Source: Yuukianura sp. NJ FZ-2021 (lineage: Eukaryota). Taken from it: a stretch of 64,000 bases of DNA. Of this stretch, positions 2,702 through 51,283 are shown piece by piece. The notes below the pieces were generated by a model, which saw only the letters and a program-made list of their open reading frames with translations, was not told the DNA's origin and ran no database searches. The position numbers were made by a program, and so were the translations under genes. How positions within the stretch are numbered: the first letter of the stretch is position 1; each line of letters opens with the position of its first letter. The stretch spans positions 15,128,001 to 15,192,000 of the forward strand of contig CM102286.1 of the NCBI GenBank assembly GCA_046563655.1, read 5' to 3'.

Positions 2702-3561
2702 CCTTGCTTTGATTCTAATAAACTAACTTTATTTCCCTAGAGTTAAAATTATAAAATTTGAAACTACGTCTGTCAAAAAGTGTTAAGTGATTACATTTCA
2801 GTCACTTTATCTCACACATAGGCTAAAACAGAGTAGAAGATCCTTTATCCTAGTGTTTTAAATTGAAACGAAATGAAAAGCAAGGTCAACTGAAATGTGA
2901 CCCCGAGTGACGCTCATTTTGCGTAAGAAGATACACTTGGTCCAAATTCTGCAACATGTCAAAATCTATTTTCACACAACTCCCGCACAGAACTACAAAA
3001 ATTCGACAAAAACAAAAATGAAACCGAAAAACGAAATCTACTTCTTAAATGATTTTGGGTTGAAACAAGTTCAAAATTTTTCGTTTTTGCTTAATTTGAC
3101 TTTCTCGAGAGGCCAAGGTCAGGCGGTATGAAAAAAAAAACTTCGTCCGGAAGTTATTGCTTAGAAGCGTGACGGTAAGTGGACTTTAATTGCCTGATGG
3201 AACTGATTTCGGTGCACACTCAAACTTAAGCATAAGCTTTTCAAAATAAAAAAAAACGCAGTTTTGCAAAATCTTTCACAAAAAACTGACTCACAAAAAA
3301 TGTAAAGTGGCCGTAGATGTTGTCAAGACACTGTGAGTTGGAATAGTTTTTTTTTCAATTGTTGTATTCTGCAACTTTTACTTCAAATAGTGGACAGAAT
3401 TTTCCAAAAATTAAAAATTTAGTACTATTTTGCAATTATTATTGAAAATTGTATCCGTGCATCTTTCTGTAGCTTTTAAGTTCTGAGTGACAGGAAGTCA
3501 TAAAGACAAAAAATTGTAACAAAAGTGGTGATTCTGAACGCCAGACGAAAAAGTGAGAGCG

Positions 3562-4584
3562 ATGGAAGTTGAAAAATTGAATTTGACGAAGAATTTTTCA
3601 AAAGCGGAGTACCCGGATGACGGGATGACGCGTGACCCCGTGTACCATGACCTCTGGGAAATGGAGAAACAAGTTGACCTCAACGCCTGGATCAAGTGGT
3701 ACGAAGAGCACAAGTACGCAGCAGTACTCGCCAGCATCTTGTACTTGGCCAGCATCTTCACTCTCCGCAAAGTGCTGGCCAATCGCAAGCCATTTAACCT
3801 CCGGAAGGCTCCCATTGGCTGGAACTTGGGCTTGGCCATTTTCAGCGCCATTTGCGTCATGCGCACTGCTCCTGCGTTGGTCTTTGCCCTCAGCCAATCA
3901 AATGGTCTCTACGTCTCCATCTGCACAAAGTAAAACTTTAAAGTTTGAATTCAGAATTTGGAAAAGTTAAAATGTTGAAAATAAAATTTTGAAAATGTTG
4001 GCCTCAGGGACTGCTGGAGTGCTGGATCGGTGTTCTGGGGAATCGCATTCGGTTGGAGTAAAATTGTGGAACTTGGTGACACTTTGTTTGTCGTTTTGCG
4101 CAAAAAACCGTTGACTTTTTTGCACTGTTTTCATCATGTGACGGTTCTCTGCTATGTGTGGACTACTGGACCATCCATGAATTCAACCAATCTCTGGTTT
4201 GGAGTCGTCAACTGCGGAATACACGCTCTCATGTACTCTTACTACGCTGCAAAAGTAACATTTTAAAACATTTTACGAAAAATTACAAAGTTTTTACAAG
4301 AATTCAAATGAAATTGTTCAGTTTTGACTTTTGGTTGACTTTAGGCGGCCCACGTGAATGTACCCAAAGGACTGGCGATGACGATCACTTCTCTTCAACT
4401 GCTTCAAATGTTCGTTGGTGTTTGGATCAACTTCTATGTGTTGACTACCAAGGTCACGGGAGGTCACTGTGCCACGGAAACCAGCGATGTCAAGTACGCC
4501 TTGCTCATGTACGCCAGCTACACAATTCTCTTTGGCATGTTCTTCTCCAAAGCATATTTGAACAAACGAACCAAAACAGACTAA
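3562..4584 (+). CDS. Elongation of very long chain fatty acids protein (ELOVL3/6-like), copy 1
   Basis: Exons 3562-3929, 4008-4254, 4345-4584. Motifs: SKIVELGDTLFVVLRKKPL, FLHCFHH (HxxHH), HALMYSYY, ITSLQLLQM, and a Lys-rich ER-retrieval-type tail. Confidence 0.93.
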
Positions 4585-5420: not shown

Positions 5421-5889
5421 AAATATTTTTTGGTTTAAAAAGATTTAAGAATTTCAGTTCCTGCTCAAGTTGACGCAAGAGAGAGGTCGAATGGAAATAC
5501 AAAAAACTCCGCCCTGCGGCTACCCCTGAGAAGTGTGACGTGCTTCGGATTTAATTGCTTCATCGCACTGATCAGTTATCAACCAACCTTAAACTTTTCA
5601 AATCTCAAATAAAACTGACGTTTATGTCTCAGTTTCACATAATGCTAAAAATTTGAAACCTAAAAAGTATAAAAGTGGGAGTTAATTATGTCAAAACGTT
5701 GTGAGTTGGAATAGTTTTTGAAGTGTTTCATTTTCTTACATGACAAATGAATTTTTTTTTTGAAAATAGTTTTTTAATTTCCAAAAATTAAACGTTTAAC
5801 ATTATTTTGGCATTGGAAGTTGGATGTTTAGCTTGTAAGGTTTGAGCGAGGAAGTCATACAAACAAAGATTTTAGAAAAAGTGTGAGGG

Positions 5890-6936
5890 ATGAATCCACT
5901 CGTTCAAAAATTGAACTTGACAAACAATTCTTGCCCAAATCCAGAAGCAGACTTGTTCCCATTGAAGGCGAAGTACCCAGATGACGGTATGACGCGTGAC
6001 CCCGTGTACCATGATCTCTGGGAAATGGAAAAGGAAGTTGACCTCAACGCTTGGATTAAGTGGTTGGAAGGGCACAAGTACGCAGCAGTACTCGCCAGCA
6101 TCCTGTACTTGGCCAGCATCTTCACTCTCCGCAAAGTGCTGGCCAATCGCAAGCCCTTTGACCTCCGGAGGGCCCTCATTGGCTGGAACTTGGGCCTGGC
6201 CATTTTCAGCGCCCTTTGCTTCATGCGCACTGCTCCAGCAATCGTCTTTCTTCTCAGCCAATCAAACGGTCTCTACGTCTCCATCTGCACAACGTAAAAC
6301 TTTAAAGTTTGAATTCAGAATTTGAAAAAGTTAAAATTTTCAAAATAAAAGTTTGAAAATGTTGGCCTCAGGGACTGCTGGAGTGCTGGATCGGTGTTCT
6401 GGGGAATCGCATTCTGTTGGAGTAAAATTGTGGAACTTGGTGACACTTTGTTTGTCGTTTTGCGCAAAAAACCATTAATATTTTTGCACTGGTTTCATCA
6501 CGTGACTGTCCTTTGCTATGTGTGGACCACTGGACCATCCATGAATTCAACCAGTCTTTGGTTCGTAGTTGTCAACTGCGCAATACACGCTCTCATGTAC
6601 TCTTACTATGCTGCAAAAGTAACATTTTAAAACATTTTACATAAAATTACAGAGTTTTTACAAGAATTCAAAGTTTTGACTTTTGGTTGACTTTAGGCAG
6701 CCCATGTGAATGTACCCAAACGACTGGCGATGACGATCACTTCTCTTCAACTGCTTCAAATGTTGGTGGGTGTTTGGATCAACTTTTACGTGCTGAGCAC
6801 CAAGGTCACCGGAGGTCACTGTGCAACGGAGATAAAGGATGTCACGTACGCTCTTCTCATGTACGCCAGCTACACAATTCTATTCGGCATGTTCTTCCTT
6901 AAAACCTATTTGAACAAACGAACCAAAACAGACTGA
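5890..6936 (+). CDS. Elongation of very long chain fatty acids protein (ELOVL3/6-like), copy 2
   Basis: Exons 5890-6293, 6372-6618, 6697-6936. FLHWFHH box. Exons and introns are highly similar to copy 1. Confidence 0.93.
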
Positions 6937-26440: not shown

Positions 26441-28995
26441 ATGAGGGTGGCAAAAGAAACTGAAACGGACCTTGACCCACCATCTAATGTTGACCTTTAC
26501 ACTGATTTACAGGTCAACAGAATGAAATTCGACAGTGTGCTGCCTCTGATTGGTGAATTCGGAAGATACCAACGTCGGATCTACTTTCTCTTGTGCCTTC
26601 CCGCCATTTCATGTGCTCTCCATAAACTTGCATGGGTCTTTCTCGGGGCAAAAGTAGCTCATCGGTAAGTTCCTCTCAACTTTGACCTTTGTACGTCTGT
26701 TTTTAAAGCTTAAAACGTTACGTTTTTGTTTACAGATGCAGACTACCGATAGATCTGGACGACGCGATTTACCAAAAGCTCCCGCCGGGAGAAGAATTTG
26801 AAAACTGGTATCCCTGGGATGCAAAGTCGGAAACTTGGGATCAATGCTATCGCTACACTTCAAATTCCAGCGGAGTTGTGGTGGACTGCGATGGTCAATA
26901 TGTTTACGACAGAACAAAGTACCAAAGCAGTGTCTTCATGGAAGTAGGTCAACAAAGGTCACGAAAGGTTAAGGACACTTAAACAAATGTCACCTTTTTT
27001 ATTTCAGTTTAATCTCGTATGTGATGACCGGAAAATCTTGCATTCTCATGCCCAAGCTCTGTTCATGGCTGGAACTCTGATTGGTTCGATCGTGTTTGGT
27101 GATTTGTCGGATCGCTTTGGTCGTCGACCGATCTTCTTCCTGTCGCTCGTTTTGCAAGTTATTTTTGGAATACTGGCAGGATTGGCTCCAGAGTACTACA
27201 CATTTGTACTGGCGAGGGCAGTTGTAGGTGCAACTACCTCCGGAATCTTTCTAGTCGGATTTGTAATCGGTCGGTAATTAACTTAACATCAATGAATTGT
27301 TGCTTCCTGTTGAATGTTTAAATTTTCATTTCAGCGATGGAGATGGTCGGGCCGTCGAAGCGAATGGTAGCTGGAGTTGTGTGCCAGTACTTTTTCACTG
27401 CCGGATACCTCTTCACTGCCATCTTTGCTTTTGTAAAATCATATCCTAACATTCCTAAATATTTTAATTAAAACTGAACTAAATGTTGGTTAAAAATTAC
27501 AGTTTATCCGGGATTGGCAAATCCTTCAAATTGCTCTATCGCTGCCGGGACTAATTTTTCTCTGCTACTATTGGTAAGTAACGACCAGCATCGCCTATTG
27601 TTCAAATATTCAATGTTAATAGTTTTTGATGTTTTAGGTTTCTACCAGAGTCAATTCGGTGGTTACTGGCGAGAGGACGGAAAGCAGAGGCAGTTGCCAT
27701 TTTGCGTAAAGTTGCCAAGGAGAACAAGGTGACACTGCCGGAAGAAATGTACGAAGGGCTTTGTGCAGAAGAAGCGACCAAGTCCAGCCACAACATTCTG
27801 CAGGTATTCAGATTCCCACGTCTTGGACTGCGAGCGGTCAACATCTTCTTCAGCTGGTAATTGAGCAATAGATAGACTCACCATTTTATAGTAAACGCTA
27901 TTTAAATTCTTACAATAATTACAACTTTGCTTTGTAGGTTTGTGAACAGTGGGGTCTACTATGGACTGTCCCTCAACACTTCAAATCTAGGCGGGAACGA
28001 TTATCTCAACTTCTTGATCTCCGGGGCAGTCGAAGTTCCCGCGTACACATTCCTACTCTTCAGTCTAAATCACTTCGGAAGGAAAATTGTACTTTGTGGA
28101 TGCATGTTAGCTGGAGGTCAATTACATTTTCCTTAACTTTTGTGATCAGGTCAAAAACTAGCAAACGATGGACTTTGTTTCAAAATTTTGTAGGACTAGC
28201 GATGTGCGGCTGTGCCTTTGTTCCGGAAGGTTGGTATTTTTCAAATTGTAGTTTTTCTTTTAACTTTGTCTTTGAAGAGTAATATGAATTTTTTTTCCAA
28301 TTTTTGATAGACTCGTCATGGCTGCTGATCACACTGTCGATGATTGCAAAGTGTTGCATCACTGCTTCCTATGGAGTCATTTACATCCTCACGGCTGAAA
28401 ATTTCCCAACCGTAGTCAGGTACGTTCTTAATTTAAGAATTGCAAGGTCAAGGTCACTTCAAGGAAAGGATACATCTTCGCATTAGGTTTAAACTTTAGT
28501 TTTGTTACAGAAATGCGGGTGTCGGGACAAGCTCAATGTTTGCTCGTGTTGGAGGGATATTGTCCTACTACGTCCTAGGCTTGGTAAAAATTCAAAATGT
28601 AGAGATCACTTAAAAATAGTAATAAAAGATGTTTTGTGTTGTGGTTAGGGCGAAATCTGGAAGCCTCTGCCTCTCCTAATTTTTGGAGCTTTGTCTGGAA
28701 CTGCTGGACTACTTGCTCTTTTAATTCCAGAAACGTTGGGGAAACGACTACCGGAAACTCTGGAAGACGGTGAAGCCTTTGGCACGTAAGTCTCTTACTC
28801 TGAAATAAAGAGTAATGTCATGTTTTAAAATCTTTTATCACTTTAAGAGCTGCCTATGACGGTCGATACAATAAAAAGGAAGAAAACGGAATCTCGGAAG
28901 GGGATGGTCCTGTTGTTGTCTTGAACGGCTTACAATCTCCGGCCAAAGGTCATGGTCCACTGACTCACACAGCCTCCAGTCACAAAGATGCCTAA
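26441..28995 (+). CDS. SLC22 organic cation transporter (Orct-like)
   Basis: MKFDSVLPLIGEFGRYQ (in-frame ATGs at 26441 and 26522), EFNLVC, GDLSDRFGRRP, PESIRWLL, YYGLSLN, AENFPTVVRN, LIPETLGKRLPETLEDGE. Stop at 28993-28995. Confidence 0.93.
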
Positions 28996-40330: not shown

Positions 40331-41494
40331 TATGTGTGAATGTTCTGACGTGAAAGATGAGCCCTGTAGCACTCTCCGTTCCAGAGTTATGAATTTTCAA
40401 AGTTTTCAAAAAAATAAATTTCTGAACTTTTTTTTCCAAAATTTTGGGTAGAGTTTTTAATTTTTTATAAAATTCTACATCCTTTTCCGAGTTCAGAACC
40501 GTCAAATTTACCTTTCTACCACGTTCGGTTCTCAAGTTATGAATTTTCAAAAAATTTGAATTTTTTTTAAAATTTTGAAAAATTTCAAAAATTCATAACT
40601 CCGGAATGAAAAGTGATAGAGAGGTAAACTCGACGGTTCTGAACTCGCAAAGTTATGAAGAATTTTATAAAAAATTAAAAAAACCACCCAAAATTTTGAC
40701 CAAATTTCGAAAAAATTGAAGGCTATAGCCTAAGGATTTTTTTTGGCCGAAAACTTTTTTGTTCGTTTTCGGCCCTTTTATAATTTCTAAAAATTCTTCA
40801 TATGTGTAAATGTTCTGACGTGAAAGATGAGCCCTGTAGCACTCTCCGTTCCAGAGTTATGAATTTTCAAAGTTTTCAAAAAAATAAATTTTTGAACTTT
40901 TTTTTTTCAAAATTTTGGGTAGGATTTTTAATTTTTTATAAAATTCTACATCCTTTTCCGAGTTCAGAACCGTCAAATTTACCTTTCTACCACGTTCGGT
41001 TCTCAAGTTATGAATTTTCAAAAAATTTGATTTTTTTTTTAAATTTTGAAAAATTTCAAAAATTCATAACTCCGGAATGAAAAGTGATAGAGAGGTAAAC
41101 TCGACGGTTCTGAACTCGCCTAACCTGTCCATGGTTTTTTTCAAAATTTGACGGAAAACTTGATGTTCGATTTTGGAGTTTTCAAAATTTGTAAAAATTC
41201 AACATATTAGTTGAAACTTATTAGTTAGGGGAACGGACCAATTTCCATTCTGTAACGAAACATCAGCCAGCATGTTACTTCATCAAAAGAGTTAAGATGT
41301 TACTACTCAAAAGTTTCTTATTATACAATGAAAACTCAATAATTTTTTTTTAACTAAAGTTATTGTATAAATTATTATTATAATTAATATTCTATAAATT
41401 CAATAAATTATTCTATAATTCACTGTCATCTATATTGTTTTCCCAATACCAAATAATAAACTTAAGTAAATTCTACACTACTGCTTTAGAATAT

Positions 41495-47400: not shown

Positions 47401-48109
47401 ACACGGTGACAGAGAACGGCTTGACGATTAATCGTATCCTGACCTGAAAACAAATTACACAAAGATCACTAAACTTTTTATAACTTTAAGTCGTGTTTTA
47501 CGATGTTACCCAATTCCTCTTGGTATAAAAACGGCCAGACTTAGCAGCACAAAATAATCAACAACATTTGGTCCAAGATCATGAACACCCAAATCAGCTG
47601 TTTCGTACCAAAAAGTTAAAAAATGTTATCCCCCTTACCTTCCCCCTTCCTGGGTGTGAATAAATGATAGAGATGGTTGATCATCTTGCGAGCAAAGTAG
47701 TTTGGCCGTTCAATGATGGGTTTTGGGACGGAGATTTTTGGATTTGGTGACAGACAAGACAGCCATTCGCAGTAGATGTTGACACAGTCCTTGATAACAT
47801 CATGCTCCGATAACTGCAAACTAAGACCATAGCAGACAACCTATAATTCAGAGACACGACTGTAAATTTTGTACTGTAAATTGATTACTAACTGCTTATG
47901 AGATGACTCACCTGTAGACACCATTCTACTTCTGGATCCGTTGCAAATGGACTTGGGATAGGTGCTTGAGAAATGCCGAGTGTAGACACAATATGGCGAG
48001 CAACTGGCACAACGACGTCTTTGGCAGAGTCCAGCGGTAGCCTCTCCAGCACAGATAGTCTATCACTCCCATCTTCGTTCCCAATGAGAGATACCCAATC
48101 GCCATACAT
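41495..48109 (-). CDS. RALGAPB: Ral GTPase-activating protein subunit beta
   Basis: MYGDWVSL N-terminus, [55 protein letters not shown]-terminal [14 protein letters not shown] possible 7-codon upstream exon lies at 48200-48220. Confidence 0.92.
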
Positions 48110-48813
48110 GTTCTTCTATTCCTGGTAAAACGAATTAATGTATTATCAATCAGCACTACTCGAGTAATTACAACGCAAATTAACTAAAGCACCACTTACT
48201 TTGCCAGTGGTACGAGCCATGTACTTCAGAATAACAATCTTTTATTCGATTAACGACTAACCAGTTGTCCGGATGTGTTGATGCACATCAGCACATCTGT
48301 TTCCCTTACTAAAAAAAAACAAACCGGTTTTAGAGGCAGTTTCTGTCAACCCTACTAGCACCCATCTCTAGCAGATGGGCATCACAAAAATATTTAACGT
48401 CCAATAAATTATTTAACAATAAAAACTAACATTACTAAAAACAATTTGTGTAAATTGTAAGAAATAGAAATTAATAGTAATGTTAAGAGTAATTAATTAA
48501 AAATTAGCATCAACATACTTGGAAACAATAATACAATAACATTACTTACTGTAAAATTAAGCAAAATATCTCACCAATAAACTAATTTGCAAAACTAATT
48601 GTTACAAAAATACATGAAAAATGGGATGAAAACATGGATGTTTTTTTTTTAATTTGCGGGAAATGAAATAATGGTATAAGGTAAGGGAAATGATATTTGA
48701 GTGTGAATAAGTGTCATGGCCATTCCGTTGTTGAATGCAGCGTAGAAGCAAGTCGTACCGATGTTGAGATCAGAATGTGGAGAAAGTCAATGTCAACCCC
48801 AAATGTGGTTTTT

Positions 48814-49485
48814 TCAGCAGCATCCGCCAGGTTCTACAAATAAGATAAAATTAACCATTAATCCTGGATTGCTAAATTAAATTGTAAGAAAGCAAGAATT
48901 TACTTGAAGCAAAACCGCAAATGTGGAGAGGAACCCGCATTGGACATGGAGCGCATTCGTAGGGATCAGCACAAATAATTGCGTTGAGCGTATACGGTTG
49001 ACTGCAACATGGAGGAGGCTGCAAGAAATGAAACGAGTCAATCAACAAAGGAAAGAAGCAAAGGTCAAAGTCTTGAGGTCAGTGACTACACTTACACAAA
49101 CTCTCGGAATCTTGCCACCAGATCCCCGACAGCAAGGTGACTAATGAACCAAGAAACATTATTAGACTAACCACTAAGCTTCAGAAACATTGGACTTGAG
49201 TTACTTACACATCGTGGATAGCATGGAGGAGGACTACCGAAAAAAAAAATAAAAACAAATTAAATTAAGTGGCATTCCTAAATCTAAAGGCATTTAATTG
49301 AAGTGTTTGGATTTTCACTCACCACATGCATGGATTGCAACAATTTCCAGATCCAGAACTCATAGAACCGCCATTTCCACCGCACTGCACATCAACAGTA
49401 ACAGATCAAATCGAGGTCACATCAAAATATTGAACAAAACGAAAGGAAAACGAAATGAGAAACTTACGCTTCCGCCTCCGCACAT
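48814..49485 (-). CDS. 94-aa Cys/Pro/Gly-rich protein encoded by six small exons (not in the ORF track)
   Basis: Exons 49485-49468, ~49385-49324, ~49233-49209, ~49140-49096, 49018-48904, 48833-48814, all GT-AG and phase-compatible: MCGGGSCGGNGGSMSSGSGNCCNPCMCPPPCYPRCSPCCRGSGGKIPRVCPPPCCSQPYTLNAIICADPYECAPCPMRVPLHICGFASKPGGCC*. Confidence 0.8.
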
Positions 49486-49654
49486 GATGATGAACCGAAA
49501 GGTAAAGATGTATTGATGAGATTGAAGAAGTAGGAATGAAGAATCGGAGCAGGAACTGGAAGACGGATTTAAATTTGGAATTTAGAGGTCAAGTGAGTCC
49601 ACTCTGCCTTCTGCTATAATGCAGGAGATGTTCACACCACAAAGGACAGAAGTG

Positions 49655-49693
49655 AACTGAAGGGTCGCGAGCCGTTTTGCACCTGCTTTTATA
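49655..49693 (-). promoter_or_regulatory. Candidate TATA box plus arthropod initiator for the Cys-rich gene
   Basis: On the minus strand, TATAAAA (49693-49687) lies ~35 nt upstream of TCAGTT (49660-49655). Confidence 0.55.
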
Positions 49694-50099: not shown

Positions 50100-51283
50100 C
50101 TAATAGCAGAGCTGAAGAAAATAACCAGGTGAGTAATTGTACGTGTAGACTCGTCCTTGACCTCCAGTGTATTTTCGGAAGAATGCTTTCCCATCTTCTG
50201 ATGGTTCCAAAATACCCAATTGATTCCTGGTTACAATACATCCTGGAATTCCACTGTGAAAACGAACCATGTCCACCAAGCGCGAAGCAATTTGCTTCCG
50301 ACGGAAGTTTTCATCAGTCCAAAGCCGTGTCACCCCAACCAAAATCTTCTGGTCCTCATTGACTCTGTCGCCATCAACACTTTCTAACGGATCAAGTCTC
50401 GACACGAGAACTTCTTTCTCATCAATGATCTCCATTCTGGCACAACCTACAACAAACACCAATCATAAACAACATCATTCCAAATCTAATGCAGTTTCAT
50501 CTCCAATTCGAAAGTTACCAAGAACTCTGACTTGATTCTTCCTCTTGGCAGGTAAAACGTAGAGGAAAAATCGATTCTGATCTGAGTCGGCCTGCGACCC
50601 ATTACCGCCTCCAACTTCCGAATCCACCCAAGCGCAGAAATCCTTCAACCGACTCCGTCCAGTCTTTTTTTCAGTGTCTTTATCAACGAGAATGACCATC
50701 CCACCGTCAACGAAATTATGAAGGATATTCACATCTTTCCAGAGCTAAATCAAACCACAAAATAACCAAGTTCAAGTTTCAATAAAATGACTTCCGATTG
50801 TAGTTACACATTGCCATTTGCTTACAGTAATCGTGTGTAGATTAGACAGACGACGGTGTGCCTTCTGATGCTCAAGTTCATCCTCAGCATCCCCTGGAGA
50901 GTAGAGCAGACCACAATCGGTGCAAATTCTTGGACCCACTTCCTTTTGTCCAGCATCCAACACCATCTGCGTCAACCCTGCATGTCACAAAATTAAAATC
51001 AATACAACAGCTAACTTAAAATAACATATCTTTCGTTTAGATTTGATACTGTACCTCCAGTTTCTCTCTTGCCAAGAAGGGATTTCTTAAGTCTTTTTGG
51101 TGAGTGTTTCCTTGCATCAGCGAGATCAATCTGGAGATTCTTGAGTGGATTGGGAGGTGGTGGCTTGAAGTTCTTTTGAAAAATCGGGAATAGATTCTGC
51201 TTTTGACCTGGGTCTGTCTTCGTCGGTACCTCCTTGTCCTTCGTTCCCGGTTCCTCTTGCATGTTCACTGGGGATGAACTCAT
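50100..51283 (-). CDS. ESCO/Eco1-family cohesin N-acetyltransferase
   Basis: QMVLDAGQK, C2H2 finger CTDCGLLYSPGDAEDELEHQKAH, GNAT motifs VVGC and GVTRLWT...RRKQIASRLVD, and PSEDGKAF. Confidence 0.88.

Follow-up and report, generated by a model that had tools for sequence, protein, structure and literature searches.

A predicted six-exon springtail gene, located between ESCO and RalGAPB, for a small protein rich in cysteine, proline and glycine

Does the interval between an ESCO acetyltransferase gene and the RalGAP beta gene (RalGAPB) of the springtail Yuukianura sp. NJ FZ-2021 carry a gene of its own, and what would its product do? The window analyzed here is a stretch of 64,000 nucleotides (assembly GCA_046563655.1, contig CM102286.1, positions 15,128,001 to 15,192,000), and all coordinates refer to it. 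A sequence-only reading of 48814-49693 had proposed a hidden chain of six small exons encoding a cysteine-rich protein of 94 residues, for which it suggested a metal-binding or cross-linked structural role, and had been silent on the strand.

Gene model, promoter and transcript ends

The chain lies on the minus strand. Its six coding pieces of 18, 62, 25, 45, 115 and 20 nt add up to 285 nt and encode 94 amino acids, and all five introns (83, 89, 68, 77 and 70 nt) have GT-AG borders, in agreement with the canonical splice sites claimed earlier. The coding part of exon 1 (49468-49485, 18 nt) begins with an ATG that has an A at -3 and ends in phase 0 at a GTAAGT donor. Exon 2 (49323-49384, 62 nt, donor GTGAGT, phase 2) encodes a Gly/Ser-rich start and then the first Cys cluster, exon 3 (49209-49233, donor GTAAGT, phase 0) is a micro-exon of 25 nt, and exon 4 (49096-49140, 45 nt, donor GTAAGT) is in phase 0 at both ends. 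Exon 5 (48904-49018, 115 nt, 38 codons) ends in phase 1 at a GTAAAT donor, and the coding part of exon 6 (48814-48833, 20 nt) ends in GGCC followed by a TGA stop codon. Donors of the form GTRAGT are found at four of the five introns and nowhere on the antisense strand, the expectation being 0.42 per 672 nt, and the GC content is 0.47-0.67 in the exons compared with 0.24-0.40 in the introns.

The description of the locus as a micro-exon gene holds for exons 3 and 4 but not for the 18- and 20-nt pieces, which are the coding ends of terminal exons that bear UTRs. As had been pointed out, an ORF finder misses the gene: the longest open piece has 38 codons, and the gene is therefore absent from an ORF list that starts at frames of at least 120 aa. 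Exon 4 could indeed be skipped in frame, which would leave 79 aa, and joint skipping of exons 2 and 3 would likewise keep the frame and leave 65 aa. A donor at 49101, 6 nt earlier in exon 4, would give a 92-aa variant and is preferred under one scoring scheme. Use of an alternative in-frame acceptor at 48863 (minus strand), which precedes exon 6 by 30 nt, would insert a short run of hydrophobic residues ahead of an unchanged GGCC end, and the resulting intron of 40 nt would be shorter than all 20 introns of RalGAPB.

The 614 nt that precede the ATG contain a single TATAWA, the TATA box (TATAAAAG, 49686-49693, minus strand), and CTATAWAAG occurs once in the whole window with both strands considered. 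Downstream of the TATA box lies TCAGTT (49655-49660, minus strand), which fits the arthropod initiator consensus TCAKTY given in PMC1913499 and provides a candidate start site at about 49658. The TATA box and the initiator of the sequence-only reading both fit their consensus; their spacing, however, is 33 nt (starts at 49693 and 49660), about 5 nt above the -30/-2 layout described in PMC3439415, where focused TATA/Inr promoters are said to accompany regulated genes. The predicted 5′ UTR (49486-49658, minus strand, about 170 nt) may contain a weak intron ending at 49556, and there is no ATG from 49840 to the start codon. No convincing X-box was found in the promoter. On the other side of the gene, ATTAAA at 48648-48653 (minus strand), followed by T-rich sequence, is likely to be its poly(A) signal; AATAAA is absent before 48246.

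Chance, neighboring genes and the RalGAPB transcript

It might be argued that no functional gene exists here, and that the locus is decaying or non-coding or represents a chance chain of splice-like sites. To examine the chain, splice matrices were trained solely on the neighboring RalGAPB gene, whose model lacks one 30-nt exon and is doubtful at the acceptor of intron 16, and the highest-scoring five-intron chain from ATG to stop was sought, blind to the proposed coordinates. This splice-only search recovered exactly the chain proposed earlier, with a score of 32.2 bits on the minus strand and -0.6 on the antisense strand. The score was reached by 12 of 300 local dinucleotide shuffles (p about 0.04) and by none of 94 antisense windows of real genes. 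Because 12 shuffles scored as well, the splice sites alone constitute modest evidence. The acceptors are weak, scoring -1.7 to 3.7 bits compared with a leave-one-out mean of 5.7 in RalGAPB, which, like the failure to find a homolog described below, favors a non-functional locus. When exon and intron composition was added, the score was 57.0, for the 92-aa variant; it was reached by 4 of 1000 shuffles and again by none of the 94 antisense windows, and none of the 1000 shuffled chains in this composition-added search contained at least 20% Cys. In a search of the whole window weighted for Cys, Pro and Gly, a weighting picked after the protein had been seen, the gene scored 38.9 and the next best locus 16.8, and none of 100 block shuffles reached 38.9. 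The second-best Cys chain on the plus strand (28168-28859) was discarded, being on our own reading an off-frame artifact over an apparent transporter gene. The chain is thus not random, and the absence of equal scores among the antisense windows and the whole-window shuffles, the stop found in each of the two other frames of the spliced sequence, and the position of the only CTATAWAAG of the window in front of the gene all argue against a non-functional locus, which we consider very improbable. From the sequence, the six-exon gene is very probably real, and we infer that it would be transcribed and spliced.

On the minus strand, the gene order is aldo-keto reductase, ESCO acetyltransferase, the Cys-rich gene and RalGAPB. 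The upstream neighbor is represented by the last three exons of an ESCO1/2 acetyltransferase gene (50100-50975, minus strand), with matches to PF13880 (E = 2.4e-18) and PF13878 (E = 8.6e-16). The downstream neighbor, RalGAPB, extends from an ATG at 48109 to approximately 41500 (minus strand), and its 1504-aa model, with 20 introns of 71-296 nt, was built on three springtail homologs to which it is 64-67% identical. A RalGAPB exon showed 71% identity with Allacma fusca, Orchesella dallaii and Folsomia candida and at most 62% with the other 117 matches listed, which places the host among the springtails at a similar distance from each of these three species.

This arrangement raises the possibility that the Cys-rich ORF is an upstream cistron or a regulatory uORF of the RalGAPB transcript. 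The two lie on the same strand, with 705 nt from the Cys-rich stop codon to the RalGAPB ATG, the candidate poly(A) signal between them is merely the variant ATTAAA, and strong leader splice sites occur downstream at 48549, 48308, 48261 and 48199. However, all four splice routes tested from exon 5 into RalGAPB run into stops, and a fusion of the Cys-rich gene to RalGAPB was rejected on these grounds. Furthermore, in L003, the closest relative among the metagenomic RalGAPB loci that we compared (86-94% identical over three RalGAPB exons, much closer than the annotated species), a gamma-tubulin gene (460-2460) lies directly upstream of RalGAPB, which begins about 400 nt behind it, and no such Cys-rich ORF is found there. 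RalGAPB can therefore be packed behind an unrelated gene in L003. We regard a shared transcript with RalGAPB as highly unlikely.

Several other features were observed in and around RalGAPB. A 30-nt in-frame micro-exon (47539-47510, minus strand) lies within the 195-nt "intron 2" and is conserved in five metagenomic loci (L003, L004, L001, L007 and L012) and in the springtail consensus. If a predicted leader intron at 48199-48122 is spliced, an 8-codon uORF would be formed in 48220-48116 (minus strand), with its stop two codons before the RalGAPB ATG and in the same frame. The intron at 41919-41846 (minus strand) is of the GC-AG type with the donor GCAAGT. Downstream of RalGAPB, an AT-rich repeated element at 40500-41150, perhaps a small transposon, contains two copies of an approximately 100-nt block at a distance of about 470 nt. 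Elsewhere in the window, two near-identical fatty-acid elongase (ELO) exons at 3538-3933 and 5887-6297 (plus strand), the second with a Pfam match, form a tandem duplicate.

Protein anatomy and the search for relatives

The predicted protein contains 19 Cys in 94 residues, as the earlier figure of about 20% implied, together with 16 Pro (17%) and 15 Gly (16%), and these three residues make up 53% of the sequence. Among the others are 3 Tyr, 1 Phe, 1 His and 2 Lys. It has a mass of 9442 Da and a mildly basic pI of 8.3, and it consists of a Gly/Ser-rich head, a Cys/Pro core and a less repetitive segment encoded by exon 5. The CPPPC and CC motifs noted before are present two and four times, respectively. 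Ten motifs were compared with shuffles of the protein: CPPPC is enriched (2 against 0.02 expected), as is CxPC (3 against 0.62, p = 0.02, uncorrected for the ten motifs), and CxP is borderline (6 against 3.2, p = 0.07, likewise uncorrected). CC (4 against 3.6), CxC (1 against 2.9) and CxxC (3 against 2.35) are not enriched, and CGP triplets do not occur. The first 11 nt of exon 5 are identical to exon 3 from the second base of that exon, and exon 3 plus donor is similar to the 3′ end of exon 2 plus donor (DNA similarity p = 0.013, 300 shuffles, one of six pairs tested). These similarities suggest that the gene may have grown by exon duplication.

The protein has no hydrophobic leader. The statement that it has no signal peptide was borne out by a hydropathy scan, in which the best 8-residue value within the first 30 aa was 0.65, and no membrane helix is indicated (best 19-residue value 0.76). 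Secreted Cys-rich peptides, such as defensins, chorion proteins and the CRD of minicollagens, bear a signal peptide; here, the hydropathy scan revealed no hydrophobic core, and the stretch from the TATA box to the start codon contains no further ATG. The protein starts with Met-Cys-Gly-Gly (49485-49474, minus strand), as do oxygen-regulated Cys N-degron substrates of plants, a likeness that may be due to chance at 20% Cys and 16% Gly.

The two ends of the protein could also be read as those of a small lipid-anchored membrane adaptor, carrying S-acyl groups on the N-terminal Cys and the CC end or two prenyl groups on GGCC. It starts with Met-Cys and ends with CC, and its last four residues are GGCC, as in Rab1/Ypt1, from which it differs in the lack of a GTPase domain. 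The CaaX rule of prenylation places Cys at the fourth-last position, which is Gly here, so the ending is not a CaaX box. The GGCC ending does satisfy XXXCC, one of the Rab geranylgeranylation patterns given in PMC5902227. According to the same source, however, Rab prenylation needs an escort protein that binds the RabF1-F4 motifs in the switch region of the GTPase (PMC5902227), and neither a GTPase domain in the 94-aa protein nor an in-frame fusion to one was found. The earlier hint at Rab1-type prenylation is therefore not supported, and such a modification is unlikely. The terminal CC is unremarkable in a protein with 20% Cys and four CC pairs where 3.6 are expected. S-acylation is possible, and a lipid-anchored adaptor as a whole appears improbable.

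To find relatives, the full spliced protein was searched against the window, 20 RalGAPB loci from metagenomes and the proteins retrieved, and the large databases were queried with single exons. No paralog was present in the 64-kb window. The exon-5 peptide or frame had no match in 5.8 billion proteins (sets of 73-2000 aa and 35-114 aa), in 1.84 billion representatives at E ≤ 0.001, or in ESM Atlas or PDB sequences, and with exon 5 as the query none of 592 pattern matches in metagenome contigs was confirmed. Neither the exon-5 nor the exon-2 peptide matched a Pfam family. These blanks weigh little because a query of 38-41 aa reaches only fairly close relatives. Nothing could be learned from an AlphaFold model of the exon-5 peptide by itself (pLDDT 58, pTM 0.31), Foldseek found no match, and Rfam returned a single chance-level match, at 15.9 bits where the cut-off is 127. 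A literature query, made without sequence, found no publication on the protein.

The tblastn of the spliced model that had been named as a check gave only two trivial matches (E ≥ 0.66) across the 20 RalGAPB loci, and a gene search that seeks Cys found nothing above -1.9 in 11 of these 20 loci, several of which have less than 2 kb upstream. An apparent ESCO match in L012 was not confirmed, and what matched locally in the L003 leader was only a donor and a T-rich intron. As the slot of the Cys-rich gene is taken by gamma-tubulin in L003, either this position or the gene itself is lineage-restricted; the species of L003 may carry an ortholog at another site. Lost synteny and undetected homologs would fit a fast turnover of the gene. 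Its description as lineage-specific thus stands as far as the exon-based queries and the L003 locus reach, and "orphan" would here mean undetected at the sensitivity of exon queries.

Cross-linking and metal binding compared

Of the two roles suggested earlier, a structural one fits better than a metallothionein. An atypical metallothionein-like cytosolic chelator would bind Zn, Cu or Cd with its 19 thiols for storage or detoxification. With 9.4 kDa and 20% Cys, the protein satisfies the definition of metallothioneins given in PMC4229212 (below 10 kDa, 15-30% Cys), and springtails possess unusual metal-responsive proteins, such as the MTC of F. candida (PMC6512762). It shares a size below 10 kDa, 20% Cys, CC and CxxC motifs and the lack of a leader with O. 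cincta MT, Oxya MT1/MT2 and F. candida MTC, of which O. cincta MT and MTC were compared by description, not alignment. Unlike these proteins, it has a single CxC (2.94 expected), and its Cys are not mostly placed in CxC or CxxC motifs (CxxC 3 against 2.35); it contains four aromatic residues besides His, is rich in Pro and has only two Lys, and, as noted above, neither exon peptide tested matches a Pfam family. The promoter also differs. The mt promoter alleles of O. cincta carry 4-6 MREs, although MRE control is not generalizable to all invertebrate phyla (PMC1913499). Here, no MRE core occurs between 48956 and 52176, the nearest lying in exon 5, so there is none upstream of the ATG; none of the 19 MRE matches (TGCRCNC) in the window falls in the upstream 2.5 kb, and an ARE is absent upstream. 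We therefore regard a chelator of this kind as unlikely.

We tentatively favor, at somewhat less than even chances and by analogy, a leaderless structural protein that would be cross-linked by disulfides or zinc in terminally differentiating cells and would resemble known families by convergence. The gene would be an independent, spliced, lineage-restricted springtail gene under its own TATA/Inr promoter. In its product, a flexible Gly/Ser head would be followed by short Cys-studded units stiffened by Pro (CCxPC, CPPPC and CxPC), some apparently exon duplicates, and by a terminal CC. Cells undergoing terminal differentiation, most plausibly spermatids, might produce large amounts of the protein, in a mode like that of fly Mst(3)CGP or vertebrate KRTAP/EDCRP, and it might first be kept reduced or zinc-bound and later be oxidized to inter-chain disulfides that harden a structure. 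Both the cross-linking and the tissue are predictions here, and the composition of the protein does not by itself discriminate between a cross-linker and a metal binder. Hexapod leaderless Cys-rich proteins of such a kind are known from spermatids, and spermatids are the likeliest site for this reason.

The Mst(3)CGP proteins of the fly testis are rich in Cys, Gly and Pro, with a repetitive Cys-Gly-Pro motif, and are needed in axoneme assembly, which is disturbed by their deletion (PMC10645079). Like Mst84Da-d and Mst87F of Drosophila, the protein studied here is a small hexapod protein dominated by Cys, Gly and Pro, and it contains six CxP triplets. Unlike them, it has no Cys-Gly-Pro repeat, its C-terminal half is non-repetitive, and its gene has no TCE (consensus ACATCNAAATTT, PMC3439415) at +28. 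Two chance-level matches with two mismatches lie in the 5′ UTR, at about +70 and +77; the window contains 81 such matches against 68 expected. Fly Mst(3)CGP proteins are also said to resemble mammalian outer-dense-fiber proteins (PMC12584897). Springtail sperm has no accessory tubules (PMC7140630) and would therefore offer no direct counterpart of the structure that PMC12584897 compares with outer dense fibers. The lack of CGP, of a TCE at +28, of a convincing X-box and of accessory tubules all weaken the sperm reading, and a sperm role, although the most plausible form of the structural explanation, is as a whole less likely than not.

Avian EDCRP and mammalian KRTAPs share a CCDPCQ repeat, a likeness ascribed to convergence, and their genes, which lie in keratin or EDC clusters of vertebrates, have one coding exon each (PMC4423139). 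The springtail protein resembles KRTAPs and avian and lizard EDCRP in its high Cys and Pro content and in a CCNPC unit similar to CCDPCQ, and its TATA promoter recalls those of KRTAPs and lizard EDCRP (PMC4423139). It contains one CCNPC and three CxPC (p = 0.02, uncorrected) without a regular repeat array and lacks Gln/Lys-rich repeats, and in place of one coding exon in a vertebrate-specific gene there are six, located between ESCO and RalGAPB in an arthropod. The likeness can only be convergent. By the features tested, the predicted protein falls outside the metallothionein, Mst(3)CGP, KRTAP/EDCRP and Rab-substrate families. Its mode is probably like that of the cross-linking structural families, with the six-coding-exon build as a variant feature. 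A more far-reaching proposal has little probability as a whole. In it, the protein would be either a springtail equivalent, evolved independently, of the Cys cross-linkers of sperm tails or cornified tissue, or a metal-binding scaffold with new Cys/Pro spacing. Duplication of PPPC micro-exons would have built it, in-frame skipping of exon 4 or of exons 2 and 3 would adjust how many thiols it carries, and its gene would have settled between ESCO and RalGAPB in this lineage alone.

Animal genomes commonly encode small orphan Cys-rich proteins, and the impact of one more predicted gene is therefore modest. If expressed, the gene would be one that plain ORF finding misses, and it would represent a further independent origin of small Cys-rich cross-linking or metal-binding proteins, intron-dense and modular in comparison with the single-coding-exon genes of vertebrates. 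It would offer soil ecotoxicology a cheap candidate for metal induction and sperm biology a candidate component of a flagellum without accessory tubules.
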